Counted from the first letter of the stretch, positions 44,901 through 53,900 are shown. The stretch is DNA of 64,000 nt from Paraspadella gotoi (GCA_051294375.1 CM119267.1:10663045-10727044); one strand, 5' to 3'. The notes: a model not told the origin generated them from the sequence alone. Program-made: numbers and translations.

Positions 44901-47900
44901 TCGAGGACGAGAGGACTTTTGGAAACCTTTTTCATTAAGCCCAAAAATTCGGTGCTAATGCTCGCAAAACGCGAACTTTCAACAGGAAGCAAGTGTTTGA
45001 TGTCAGCGCTGCCTGTGAATATGCCTTCCAGATAGACCCATCGCCGCTGAACATCAATCCAAACATCAAAGAGAGCGTTAATACGATTTAATTTTTCTTC
45101 CCAAGAAATTGCATCTTCCTCGAACTCCTTAAAATAAGGAGACAATTTCATTGCCGAGATTTGGTTCATGTGTTCTTTAATTTTATTGAACAGATCATCC
45201 CATGCACGAATAAGACGACACTTATTTTGATAGTTGACAAGGTCCAACTGATAACTTTGCCACTGTTCCCGAACTTGCTTGAGAAACTCCTCCAGAGCCA
45301 TCTCACCCTGCGCTACCATTATAACGTCACGAAAAATGGCCTCATTTTTGTGTAAATCTGCGTCCCAAACTTGACCTAAAGTTAAATCGCTAAGAACCCA
45401 ATGAACACGTAAATTTCGAATCAATTGCTTCCAATGACGATCTTTGAGTGCGTCAGATTTTAATTCGATGATAAGAATGTTGACTTTTAAGTAACCCTCC
45501 AGTGTTCTCTTCACATGCTCGTAGGACGCATACTGCCGCAGCCTCGCCGGTAGTTCTTTCATCTGATTAATCAGATCGGTAATCGATTGACGTAATTTCT
45601 TTGGCTGCACTGAGAGCCATGACTTTTCCTTTAACTCTTCTAGCTGTTCCCAGATTCTTGAAAGCTCCGTCCAAACACCTTTGAGATCTTGCAACTCTTC
45701 AATTCCCACAGCCACTCTTTCGTCAGACGCTGAATAAGCTCCAGAATCTTGAAATTCCAAAGCTTCCTTTGCTTTAGAGACATTGTCGCGCTCCTCCTTA
45801 AGTCGGCTAAACTTGCCTTCAAAGATGGTGAGATTTTTCAAGGCGGCGTCAGGACGGATTCCCCCAGAGATGGGCTTTTCCTTTTCCCACTCTTGAAGAA
45901 GATCTGAAGTTCGTGACTCAACTCCTCTCTCCTCGGCAACTATCTTCATCTGAAGGGATGCCACCTGAGTCTGAATAGAACCATCTTTACGCTTTAGAAT
46001 GTCGTTAAAGGCACTCCATTCGCCCTCAATGTTCTCCTTGTCAAGCCAAGTTGATGGAAACTGGAATCTTTGTCGCTCTAAAATGCGTTGGCCCTCACTG
46101 AAAAGCTCCACGTTTTTCTCCCAAGCCTTCATTTTTCTTTTTATAGATTGCACAAAAGTGATGAAGTTAACAGCTTCAGTGGTAGAAGCAGTCTCAACGG
46201 TTTGCTGTTCTAAATCAACGCGAGCTTTGTTAATAGTTCCATAAAAGTCTTGCGCTTCTTGACCAAGCAGAGAACCAAATTTATTCAAAATTTCTTTATG
46301 CCAAGAATCATATTTAAGGTTGACCTTAGACTGTACTTTGGCATAATCAATAACAATAGGACCAAAGACTTTTTGTGATTCGGGAGTGTCAAATGTACGG
46401 CGATAGTCTTTAATGTCCTTCAGACATTCCATCCAACTGATAATGTCTTGTCCCAAACTCTCTAAGATGAGTTCCATGTTGAGATCCCATAGAGATTGAA
46501 ACCGAAGCCAATTGTCCACATAACCTTCCACATTTTTGATCAATACATCCATTGCATGGTAACAATTTTCTAGGGTTTCTGGGCCATTTGGTAACTTAGT
46601 CAATAGGTCTTTGTAAGTAGTTTCATTCTCACTTCCCATTTCCAGGCCAACTTGATATCGAGAGTGCTGGATACGAGGGAGAGAAGTGACAACAGCTTCC
46701 CAGGCAAAAAGCTCTTGAAGGACATTGAAACGGCATTCCTCTACAGAAGGATGTAAATACAAAACTTGATTTGAAATACGCATTTCGTGAATAAGGTTCT
46801 TGATTTGAGGATCGCCGCCTAATTTAGCTTTAACAACTTTCTCCCCATCTTCATCTTCGTTATCTTCATCGGCAGCCTTATCATCGGATGCTCCTTCCAA
46901 AGCCTTTCTCCATGCAATCAAACCAGCTTCAAGCCGAGTCGCCAATTTCTTCTCTACTTCTTCGTCAAGCCGATGAACCCATTGCGGAAGGTTTGAATAG
47001 GCATTCAGAGATAGATCATCAACTGCTTTTTGGATTTTGTTGAGTATTTCGCGGAATGTGGCGATGCTGTAGTGACATGTTCCCAAAGCCTGAACATCCC
47101 TCTCGATCTGCTCTTGAATTGTCAACAAATCGTCAACTTTCTCCTGGTACCCAAAAACCATCTCGGCCAATTTCTGAACATAGTTGTCAAGCTTGTAAGA
47201 TTCCCATACGAGACAGGATCCTTCAGAAACGGTGGCATGAATGTCGTTTTGTAAGCCGGCCACGAGGAGACCGACAATTTGGCGACCAGCAACCTTCTCG
47301 TTTGTCCGCTCATATGTTCGGACGCTCTCGATCAAGGAGATGGCAAAGGGGTAGAGTTGGTTCGCCTGGTGAGCCTTGTTCACAATGACCAACGGAACTC
47401 GGAACCCCAACCACTTGAGATTTCGCACTTCTTTTGATAATGTAATGATTTCGGGAAGAAAGTTGACCTAAAAAGGCAATAATTGTTTTATGAACTATTC
47501 TGGGACTGTTTTTCTTAACAAGTTCTTGAAAAAAAATTAATAGTACTTAGCGGATTATAATAAAGTGCTGCAACCCGAACTCGTACTTTAACGAAATACC
47601 TAGTCTTTTTAAAATCTATTAAGAGTTTCGACGTGATCGTTGAACTACAAAGCAAAGAAACAACGAACTAGTACAATGTACTACGAAACTGACCCTCATA
47701 GAAAAGTAGATATCTTTCCGTCCTTGACGATCCCGTGTTCCTTCAACAGCAAAGATTCTTCCTGTGACACCAAGATTCCTCTGTTGTACTCGACGGGCCC
47801 ATTCTTCAAACAATTCTTGTGTATTCAGTTTGGCCCTGTAATTATGAAAAAAACATTTTGTTATTGAGCCCAATTCGTTCGCTTTATCTTTTAAAATTAT

Positions 47901-50900: not shown

Positions 50901-53900
50901 GGGCAAAGTTTCCAACACAGAGTTGAGAAGGGATAGTGGTCAATTGTGAGGACAGATTAAGGTGAAACAAATAGAGCCAGTTTGTGAAAAGAAATTGAAA
51001 TGGTGAGAGAGAGAGAGAGAGAGAGAAGAGAAGGAGAGAGAGAGTGAGAGAAACTTGAAAAATAATACATTGTGCAATGTACAACAAAGATAAATATTGT
51101 TTAAAACTTAATGATTAGTGTTAACAATTAACTACTGTGAATAAATAAGTTAGTGAAGATGAAATTGTGAAATTTGAAATGTGAAGGAAATAGAGGTGAG
51201 GGATAGTTAAGCAATTATTATTATAGTGAAGTATAAGAGTTAAGATAGAGCTCAAAGTGAGCTGGCCCCCCTTGGCTTGTGCAAATGAAAGGCCTGATCG
51301 ATGTGGTCGGGTCATTGACGTGTCAGTGGCTGTGAGGACAAAATCGTTGAGCCTATGTGTGCGGCGTTAGGGAGGCTTCCTTGCGGGAAGATACACATGC
51401 ACATAATTTGTTTCAAATTCACTAACTTTTTTAATGCTGATGAAGGCTTGTAGTTAAGCCGAAACATGTCCGTTTTTATCAAATAAAATCGTTGTTGAAA
51501 ATTCATTTCAAACTTTTCTAATAATTATACAACACGAAAAGAAAGGATTATACCACAAATTATATCTCTAAACTTGTTTTTATTTTTCCAATAATTTTTT
51601 TACAAAAACCTTTTCTCCAATCTACCTGAAGGAATCTCCGTCAGCCTTAAGCTTCTGACCCTCGACGTGGTTCTCCCATCCTTTCCCCAGAACATCCTCG
51701 ACGCGATGCATGTAAGCGGCCAGTTGCCGCTCAATCTGACGTGCCCAAATGATTGAACCGGAAACCGGCGGAAAGTCTCGAACGCGTGACATGCGACATG
51801 CTTTAGAATTTGGATATTGAACCTACAAAATGAATGGAAAATAATAATCCGGGTAAATATCGTACTAACTCCTTTTTCGCAATAATTTACCTTGAATTTT
51901 TCATGAAGCGTTTCAATATCATCCTTGACTCTTTGGATGAGTTGCGTTTGATATTCCCTGATGGCGCCGCGAATGTGTGGCCGCACGAAGAGAGCATTGA
52001 ATCGCGAAAAAATGCGAAACATCTCATTGGCGTTCTTTGCCGTCCCCAGTTGGTCGCGGAGTCGAGCCGTAATTCTGGTCTCCACCCTGACAAAAACCGC
52101 GTCGAGAATATAAAAGTTGAAAACGGGCAACTACTTTCTATTTGGTAGATAAATTACCTGTCGATCCTTTCCTCGTAACGCTTGACGGCAGCCTCCCACA
52201 ATTCGGTTCCTTCTTTGGAGGTGTCGAGTCCGTCCACTTCCTTGACGTTTTCGTAAGCGAGATTGACTTCTTCGATCGCGTTGGCGTCGGCGGCGTCCAA
52301 CGGGACGGGCTTGGCCACGGAATCATCGCCCTCCGCGCCGGAAACCGCGGTTCTGGCGACAGTCGCGGGTCTAAGGACCCTAACGATGACCGAACGCAGC
52401 TGTTCGTGCTGGCGGCGGAATCGGCGCATCTGATCGAGGCGTCCTTGGAGGCGCTTGTGGGCCGGATTTACTCGCCAAACCATTTTCATGTGTTCGCCCT
52501 TTTTCTTCTTGACGATGTCGCGCAAAAGAGCCTGTAGTTTGTCATTCCTGGAGAAAAAAATCTGAAAGTCGAGATCTATTCAAAAGTGAATCAAAAAGAA
52601 AGTACTCCTGAGCTCACTCGTCGTCCCAACAGGTAAAAACTTCGAAGCAGGCGGCCATCACTCGCTCGAAGTCCTCGTAAGGAATGTGCATCAGGCGTCG
52701 CGTTCCCAAAACCTTCATAACTTGCTGAGAAAGGTCTCGAGAAATCGCCTCCACCAGACGGAGTGCACGCTGAAATTATCCAAGAAAATTTGTTGAAAGG
52801 TTATCGATTTCTCGGTTAGATACATATTATATACTAAACTAAAGCAAAGCAGAAATTGACAAAAAAAATAATAAGGGTCAAGTTCAACCGACTTGTATCG
52901 GATATTTGGTGGCCTTGATTTTCCGTAAATGAGTATAGATGAGGTGCAGAGCATTTTTGATTCTGTCCAATTCGGTGGCGGACAAAAGATCATTCAGCGG
53001 AAAATCCTTCATAAGGGGTGCATAGTCGTTGACAGTTTCGAGGGCCTGCTTGAGCCCCGGATCCGATTCGAAACTAAAAAATAATTAAGAAATATAATAT
53101 TAATTTTACTTGCTCAACGATTTATTTTTGGAACCTCCCAACTTTCTCTTCACCGGCGTTACCCTCAACGTCGAATGCTAACCTGACTGTAGCGTGATAT
53201 CTCTTCCCCATTCTGAGAATATCCAAGGTGAGACTGATCTCTGGCGACTCGCTCTTCTCCTTGATTCTCAGCAACGCGCGCTCCAAATTCAGCCAAAAGG
53301 AGATCTCTTGAAGCGCGGTGCCGGAGGCCGGATCTCGGTCCAGCTTAGTCACCTTTTGAATCTCGCGAATCCATCGGTTCACTCCGCTTTGCAGTTGATT
53401 CAGAAAGTTTGAGTCCTTGGCCTTTAGTTTTAAGAAGCAATTAATACAATTAATACAATACCATTTGGTCATAATTTTGCCTACACAGGCTGGAACCGAA
53501 CCTGTCGGTTATTTTTTTATTCGCATAAATTTTTACTTTTCTTTTTCTTGTAGTATCACTCTCCGGCAAGTTTTGCTTAGGGGTGATTTGATTTAAGGGT
53601 GGTTAGGGGTAGCTAAGGTTAGAGGTTGTTAGGGGTATTTGAGGTTATAGTAAAAGGTGGTCAAAGTTAGGGGTGGTTACTGATTTGGGTAATTTTCGAA
53701 AAAAAATTTTATAATAAAATATTTATTAACTTTCTATTGTTCATTTTTTTGCGAAATAATTTTTTTTTACGTTTGTGCTCATAAAAAGCGGGAAAAATCA
53801 CCGACTGAAACATCCTAAACAGTGAATATAAAATTTTACAACAATTTCAATCACGACTCCCACCTTGTCGGCATAATCTTCCACTCTGACGCTGACCCCC

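Follow-up and report, generated by a model that had tools for sequence, protein, structure and literature searches.

A likely truncated Penelope-like insertion with hammerhead motifs, split by a TTAA-flanked repeat, in a dynein heavy chain intron of Paraspadella gotoi

Which kind of mobile element placed hammerhead ribozyme motifs on both strands of an intron in an essential motor gene, and what would these motifs mean for the host transcript? This question is raised by positions 47894-51568 of a 64,000-nucleotide stretch of Paraspadella gotoi DNA (GCA_051294375.1 CM119267.1:10663045-10727044; the whole stretch is termed the window below). A first-pass annotation had placed there, inside a dynein gene, one non-coding Penelope-like or retrozyme element with inverted arms of ~126 bp. 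We find that the interval is very probably an 804-bp insertion flanked by a target-site duplication (TSD) and composed of two head-to-head copies of a hammerhead-bearing repeat end. It is most likely the 5'-truncated product of an endonuclease-positive (EN+) Penelope-like element (PLE), whose left copy was split by a 2,843-bp TTAA-flanked, likely non-autonomous Kolobok-type repeat. The features of the interval are as follows, the main copy being the one that we read as lying on the minus strand:

47894-47905, no strand: left copy of the TSD, an exact match to 51557-51568
47906-47974, minus: outer 3' end of the main copy (tail-less pseudo-long terminal repeat, pLTR), with the stem II 3' strand, GAAA, GUC and the stem I 3' strand of the split hammerhead; 69/69 nt complementary to 51454-51522
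47971-47974, no strand: left copy of the TTAA target, in loop II/stem II of the left hammerhead
47975-50817, no strand: nested non-coding repeat, 2,843 bp, with a TTAA duplication, GG...CC ends and imperfect terminal inverted repeats (TIRs) of ~14-16 bp (47975-47990 and 50804-50817)
50818-50821, no strand: right copy of the TTAA target
50822-50879, minus: inner part of the main-copy pLTR, with the stem I 5' strand, CUGAUGA and the stem II 5' strand of the split hammerhead; 50817-50879 is complementary at 62/63 positions to 51397-51458
50880-51394, minus: non-coding body of the main copy, upstream of its pLTR and probably 5'-truncated, as judged from an arm-body junction common with an older relative, from contig ends and from the lack of a credible protein match
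50882-50951 and 51240-51394, minus: conserved block and GC-richer 5' end of the body, which also holds a GA run
51395-51396, no strand: 2-nt filler at the head-to-head joint, read by eye
51397-51522, plus: inverted, 5'-truncated second pLTR copy, 126 nt
51433-51474, plus: sole whole minimal type I hammerhead motif, from descriptor and pairing
51523-51556, plus: A/C-rich tail of 34 nt (18 A, 6 C), on one end only, with a homolog at 49628-49662 and multi-copy variant contigs at 51527
51557-51568, no strand: right copy of the TSD, an exact match to 47894-47905

The 12-bp direct repeat at the outer boundaries has no third occurrence in the window, would match by chance at ~3e-7 per register and consists of A or T at 10/12 positions. 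The arms differ by no substitution and by a single 1-nt indel within a T run, and the tail is A or C at 24/34 positions. Thus, the TSD and the one-sided tail of the first-pass annotation hold as described. Its inverted arms hold on the right, but the left arm is not one stretch and lies in two pieces (47906-47974 and 50822-50879). Likewise, of the hammerhead cores that it placed in each arm, the right one is whole (51437-51470), but the left one is interrupted in stem II by the 2,843-bp insert, so that ~2.85 kb separate its CUGAUGA half (50838-50832) from its GAAA...GUC half (47967-47958). The interval is indeed bounded by the TSD, but only 804 bp of it are the element proper and ~77% is the nested second element. 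The near-identity of the arms agrees with the recent insertion that had been proposed; it is silent on autonomy, because both arms would have arisen in one event.

The orientation of the element follows from comparison with an older, diverged relative of the same PLE family that lies within the nested repeat:

49387-49662, minus: the older relative as a whole
~49387-49608, minus: its main piece, with CUGAUGA at 49475 and the cleavage register lost
49609-49627: its inverted piece, 19 nt
49628-49662: its tail, 35 nt

The two copies agree at 83/104 positions of the arm, 27/33 of the tail and 43/47 of the conserved block. The older one retains CUGAUGA and GAAAC, with a near-palindromic hairpin at the place of stem III, but has lost G10.1-C11.1 together with the cleavage register and gives no match to the strict hammerhead descriptor; it has no clear TSD, the best 8-mers not being flush with its ends. 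The left arm-body junction of the young copy is identical in layout to that of the older one, even though the two are only ~80% alike in the arm, and a junction common to both is best seen as native.

To examine the right joint we used sequencing runs, of which 11 were listed and nine, from three studies, had the stretch; the contigs of four (X1, X5, X8 and X9) were aligned, with X9 taken by guess as an RNA run because one of its contigs skips introns and its depth is zero in a single-copy intron bin. In contrast to the left junction, the right joint appears to vary among copies: 51394|51397 in the young copy, 49608|49609 in the older one and a third, seen as a loose end in X5, behind ~50922. 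The contigs listed from X1, X5 and X9 have no other letters up to 51394 and continue beyond it for 7, 43 and 32 other letters, respectively; X8 has no piece at 51394 among the contigs listed. This variability of truncation, with three different joints and a continuation past 51394, is drawn from short contig ends only. Because only the left junction is native, the minus strand is most likely the reading strand of the main copy, which would then lack a tail and be 5'-truncated at 51394, with the plus-strand arm and tail representing an inverted second copy. By eye, the filler matches no loose end behind 51394 and also differs from the native sequence on the 5' side of the arm. The X5 loose end behind 50922 belongs to another genomic copy that turns into an inverted arm and has GUA in place of the GUC triplet. 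We also observed long (median 131-172) unrelated continuations behind 50924 in X1, X5 and X8, so that the conserved block at 50882-50924 may belong also to another repeat family. A separate 23-nt inverted match of 87% (E 0.03-0.08) links the body (51142-51164) to the arm just upstream of the hammerhead (51411-51433); read on the minus strand, it forms a direct repeat within the element.

The other genomic copies that had been predicted are present. Single body contigs with no other letters stand at 29-48 times (X1), 28-40 times (X5) and 23 times (X8) the depth of the unique flanks, and tail-variant contigs at 15-73 times that depth; contig depth is not a copy number, but the family is multi-copy, with tens of close copies, and looks young. 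In X9 the body contig has a depth of 690.7 versus 206.4 for the dynein contig, and the family sequence is probably transcribed somewhere.

The nested repeat is likewise multi-copy, its contigs being at 6-22 times the flank depth, and is rich in (TCG)n and GA tracts. A 2-nt gap at 47983 in nearly all the aligned depth makes its left TIR match the right one better. Kolobok transposons combine a TTAA target with 5'-RR...YY-3' ends, unlike piggyBac (PMC9587614). The TTAA TSD, RR...YY termini, short TIRs and multiple copies of the nested repeat agree with this (PMC9587614). It departs from Kolobok in that no DDD/E transposase was found and in having a PLE fragment and long (TCG)n/GA-rich tracts inside. 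There is no long open reading frame (ORF) in 47975-48950, and the four internal frames (48841-49392, 49936-50562, 49951-50316 and 50700-50933) match no Pfam family, although not every short frame was scanned. This fits a non-autonomous member and, going by its ends only, the repeat is likely a non-autonomous Kolobok-type DNA transposon. The older PLE piece is likely cargo of the whole nested-repeat family, because one X9 contig extends at least 47 letters to either side of its tail end and because position 49668 is covered by multi-copy contigs in all four runs. A limited literature search turned up no published case of a hammerhead ribozyme in a Kolobok-type miniature inverted-repeat transposable element (MITE), which is not proof that none has been reported.

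When compared with known systems, the 804-bp insertion finds its closest counterpart in EN+ PLE insertions (Penelope/Poseidon, Neptune and Nematis; e.g., Pen2a_Av and Pen2 derivatives; PMC3846280, PMC8557442). These carry an inverted 5'-truncated copy at the 5' end and a 30-40-bp tail on one end (PMC8557442); those of Adineta vaga have an inverted pLTR, a 31-bp tail and TSDs of 8-10 bp (PMC3846280). Here, an inverted 5'-truncated pLTR copy adjoins the 5' end in both the young and the old copies, tails of 34 and 35 nt, respectively, are on one end only, a minimal type I hammerhead lies in the pLTR, and the short TSD, head-to-head joint and AT-rich target are likewise shared. The differences are that there is no ORF, nor one starting in the pLTR, that a direct (partial tandem) pLTR pair around a full copy is absent from this locus, that the TSD is 12 rather than 8-10 bp and that a second element splits the copy; a clade assignment would require a reverse transcriptase (RT). 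The single ORF of EN+ PLEs, with telomerase-like RT and GIY-YIG domains, is missing because this copy has no ORF, as expected for a truncated one. The Penelope-like origin suggested earlier thus gains support from the layout and the hammerhead traits, and judged by its structure the locus would belong with EN+ PLE insertions as a known footprint and a mostly ordinary case.

The whole hammerhead is numbered by the conventional scheme and has the following parts, all on the plus strand:

51433-51436 and 51471-51474: stem I, 4 bp
51437-51443: core CUGAUGA
51444: extra A
51445-51450 and 51455-51460: stem II, 6 bp
51461-51464: GAAA
51464-51469: palindrome ACAUGU (stem III)
51470: C17

A strict descriptor has a single match in the window, the site at 51437-51470, and at least one match in 5/100 Markov-1 control windows. 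By itself the motif thus exceeds chance only modestly; the call draws its weight from the location of the motif in the arm and from the second, related copy. It shares with metazoan PLE minimal hammerheads the extra base between 9 and 10.1, G10.1-C11.1, a long (6-bp) helix II, a short (4-bp) helix I and a small palindromic helix III (PMC4209133). The same source describes dual minimal hammerheads on opposite strands, 100-700 bp apart, as 'probably related to truncated PLEs'; the window has two CUGAUGA-stem II motifs, on opposite strands, with the paired ones ~600 bp apart. In contrast to the published cases, one of the pair is split here. As first annotated, a minimal type I hammerhead whose stem III is palindromic and whose cleavage is predicted at 51470 thus agrees with both the descriptor and the published traits. 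The count of 0/100 shuffles for the CUGAUGA-stem II pattern is post hoc and is not used as a significance test.

Folding predictions favor stem II (pair probabilities 0.90-1.0) and disfavor the rest of the active form. Stem I has P ~0.37 in a 51-nt piece and P<=0.01 in two longer arm contexts, in which the core pairs with 51475-51481 (P up to 0.64-0.95). The active dimer, at -16.6 kcal/mol, is 5.6 above the best alternative dimer (-22.2), and in plus-strand RNA of 50817-51556 the core is paired with 50818-50838 (P 0.99-1.0). Hence, the whole hammerhead is predicted to have poor activity: it would need a dimer partner and would be buried by pairing with the opposite half-arm. Minimal PLE hammerheads are described as cutting weakly and just as multimers in vitro (PMC4209133). 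By eye, the stems of the two in-window copies differ by one-sided changes that preserve pairing, in stem I and, once, in stem II.

A pattern scan of metagenomes gave nine loci, which were rejected as homologs since 9/9 share just the core and stem II and BLASTN of the element gave one 33-nt match; they were left out of the covariation analysis because the search pattern fixes stem II. As an observation in its own right, the contigs L001, L002, L004, L006 and L007 on the one hand and L003, L005 and L008 on the other are two groups of unrelated repeats with a minimal hammerhead, the same stem II base (GGCUU/AAGCC) and a palindromic stem III, and L002, L004, L006 and L007 also have long inverted repeats. 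No PLE ORF was seen among the frames of at least 150 aa, which only L009 possesses, L001-L008 having none of that length. L009 has a hammerhead-like core with a longer stem III (5001-5032, minus) in a phage-like contig, whose ORFs appear terminase- and capsid-like by eye.

The body was annotated as having no RT or endonuclease ORF, and this holds: of all 23 stop-to-stop frames of at least 20 aa in the body and arms, 22 have no Pfam family at E<=0.1. The remaining one matches PH_PHS1 (E 0.028), which was set aside as unrelated and below its Pfam cut-off. Also rejected as spurious was the single match of a phmmer search with the longest GC-side frame (81 aa) against 1.84 billion representatives, namely P0001, a tandem-repeat ORF aligned in five weak stretches. 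The non-coding sequence upstream of the pLTR spans at least 515 nt, and by eye the frame from the ATG in the hammerhead core closes within a few codons, so that no ORF starts in the pLTR. GC rises up to 53% at the truncated (5') end of the body; on neither strand does this GC-rich end fold better than its shuffles (z -0.97 and -0.88). No tRNA was found in the window, and hence no tRNA-derived head of a short interspersed element (SINE). On our analysis, such a non-coding body would not make the family non-autonomous, because an ORF-bearing rotifer family has non-coding spacers of 0.9-1.5 kb ahead of its 3' pLTR. The non-autonomous family that had been proposed is accordingly not established, and with high-depth contigs continuing past 51394 the copy is most simply explained as a truncated end left by a longer element.

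Several observations weigh against this account of the interval. Neither the element (Pfam on its frames) nor the window (ORFs and motifs) yielded an RT or GIY-YIG sequence, so that PLE membership rests on structure and ribozyme rather than on protein. The hammerhead at 51433-51474, although matched by the strict descriptor, is not recognized by Rfam: over the 64 kb there was no match at the gathering score, and the seven weak matches at E<=10 include no hammerhead. The hammerhead folds no better than shuffles (z -1.14; 28/200 as good), and in comparing the young copy with the older one we saw no compensatory change on both sides of a stem. Beyond 51394, the loose ends measure just 7-43 letters among the contigs listed and differ between X5 and X9. 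At the outer boundaries, contigs from the unique flanks enter the left end by just 28 (X1) and 18 (X5) letters and the right end by 23, all under the 31-letter rule for bridging. The empty-site joint 47905->51569 is not among the 15 joints listed (155 more are unlisted). The contigs nevertheless suggest that the insertion is real and common to X1 and X5, which come from two studies, X1 being possibly the source sample. No contig bridging the TTAA junctions is among those listed. Finally, the nested repeat differs from its own family contigs by 4 letters and 3 gaps in 266, versus 0 in 117-149 for the PLE body that it interrupts; being more diverged from its family, it requires a diverged donor copy if the order of events is to stand.

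With these points in mind, the following mechanism may be proposed. A PLE-encoded GIY-YIG endonuclease would have nicked both strands 12 bp apart in AT-rich intron DNA. The PLE RT would then have used both nicks for priming, starting at two sites of the element RNA that lie 34 nt from each other and giving a tail-less cDNA of ~640 nt to 51394 and a tailed cDNA of 160 nt to 51397. The two truncated ends would have been joined head to head with two filler bases. Later, a TTAA element with an older PLE piece as cargo would have inserted into stem II of the minus-strand hammerhead. This scheme is modeled on the Poseidon element PAc of Anolis carolinensis, in which the tail is as long as the interval separating two RT start sites within AC-rich RNA, cutting and extension affect both DNA strands, and AT-rich targets are favored (PMC11167929). 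In the same account the hammerhead was not required for insertion in vitro; unlike here, where the same frame closes after a few codons and gives no protein, the PAc ORF starts at stem II of its hammerhead. Two related insertions in one intron, with the same tail boundary and different truncation points, fit the two-sided priming model without proving it (PMC11167929). Self-priming on an antisense template, an alternative head-to-head route (PMC3846280), was considered; the lack of a palindrome at the joint by eye leans against it without excluding it. The copy itself was likely dead on arrival.

This mechanism leaves two candidates for the template. An ORF-bearing PLE with a non-coding 3' region is somewhat the more likely. 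The lesser but still substantial candidate, a sub-case with the same insertion mechanism, is a longer ORF-less, SINE-like PLE derivative copied in trans by an autonomous partner, with this locus as its truncated copy. Such a derivative would account for the at least 515 nt of non-coding sequence and for the lack of an ORF starting in the pLTR, where those of PAc and Pen2a do start (PMC11167929, PMC3846280). It would also suit the tens of near-identical copies and their presence in the probable RNA run (690.7 versus 206.4), and non-autonomous PLEs have been described for Chlamys (PMC8557442). However, the non-coding spacers of 0.9-1.5 kb are also present in the ORF-bearing Pen1_Av (PMC3846280). 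Furthermore, most PLE insertions are described as 5'-truncated (PMC8557442, PMC8969392, bioRxiv 10.64898/2026.07.22.740005), so that 0.5 kb of non-coding sequence is expected either way, and the 53% GC at the truncated end might occur near coding sequence.

Derivation from a non-LTR (long terminal repeat) retrozyme, in which tandem hammerhead units are transcribed, cut to monomers, circularized and re-inserted, appears unlikely. Like this insertion, these elements are non-coding, have a type I hammerhead and are likely PLE-related (PMC7229834; bioRxiv 10.64898/2026.07.22.740005); a pLTR origin has been proposed for them (the latter source), and the family sequence is in the probable RNA run. 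However, they consist of tandem same-strand repeats of 150-450 bp with mostly canonical hammerheads, which give circular RNA, whereas here there is an inverted pair with a tail and a hammerhead of the minimal PLE type rather than the canonical one tied to retrozymes (PMC7229834). The locus lacks the run of at least two consecutive tandem units, each with a whole hammerhead, by which retrozymes are recognized (bioRxiv 10.64898/2026.07.22.740005). No hammerhead-containing tandem unit is among the 21 TRF rows, and the two CUGAUGA-stem II motifs are on opposite strands. A circle-type joint that goes back within the arm is not among the 15 joints listed (155 being unlisted), a result from contigs only that is inconclusive for the family. 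The retrozyme label of the first-pass annotation thus finds no support at this locus. A fixed fold-back (MITE-like) unit with 126-bp TIRs, moving as DNA or as a set 804-nt RNA, would explain the near-perfect inverted arms and the TSD but is most improbable given the one-sided tail, the different joints in three copies and the absence of the 51394|51397 joint from the high-depth contigs.

Returning to the 5'-truncated PLE insertion and its nested repeat, both lie in an intron of the host gene:

47836-51625, minus: intron of the cytoplasmic dynein heavy chain gene, 3,790 nt (127 nt without the insertions), GT..AG; contig 25 of X9 has the joint 47834->51625 (CT..AC, cut +1)

The location within a dynein gene given earlier is thereby refined. 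The exons flanking the intron match DHC_N1, DHC_N2 and AAA_6 in Pfam, and one X9 contig skips exactly 47836-51625 along with two neighboring CT..AC introns; the neighboring dynein introns are short (68 and 226 nt). Most of the longest ORFs of the window are on the minus strand, and the 3.65-kb repeat nest is conspicuous in this gene-dense setting. Just upstream of the dynein heavy chain gene and on the same strand is a single ORF of 797 aa (59513-61906, minus) for the dynein adaptor Bicaudal-D (Pfam BicD, E 2.8e-132).

Relative to the dynein pre-mRNA, the whole hammerhead lies on the antisense strand, and both sense-strand cores, i.e., the split one and that of the old copy, are broken. Thus, the minus-strand pre-mRNA is predicted to hold no intact hammerhead, just inverted repeats, and no cutting of the dynein message is predicted. 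That only the antisense hammerhead is whole might be taken to mean that a sense-strand one had cut or slowed the pre-mRNA and that its disabling by the TTAA insertion was favored. This is highly improbable: 2/12 TTAA sites of the pre-insertion intron lie within the sense hammerhead, so that a chance landing (~1 in 6) needs no selection, minimal hammerheads are reported to cut poorly even as dimers (PMC4209133), and in folding predictions the arms would pair mutually and bury both cores anyway.

A more far-reaching reconstruction, which we regard as speculative and doubtful, is that the master was an ORF-less, SINE-like Penelope derivative rather than a tandem retrozyme. It would have been active long enough to form two subfamilies ~20% apart, and would be transcribed and still copied in trans. 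An old copy with a hammerhead core would have been spread as cargo by a Kolobok-type DNA transposon, and this transposon would then have jumped into the ribozyme of the young copy, thereby removing the sole hammerhead able to cut the dynein pre-mRNA. If the master is indeed ORF-less, the family would add an animal SINE-like PLE partner that is not a tandem retrozyme. For the host, a 127-nt intron of an essential motor gene has grown 30-fold by what we read as two nested events, with no whole sense-strand ribozyme left.

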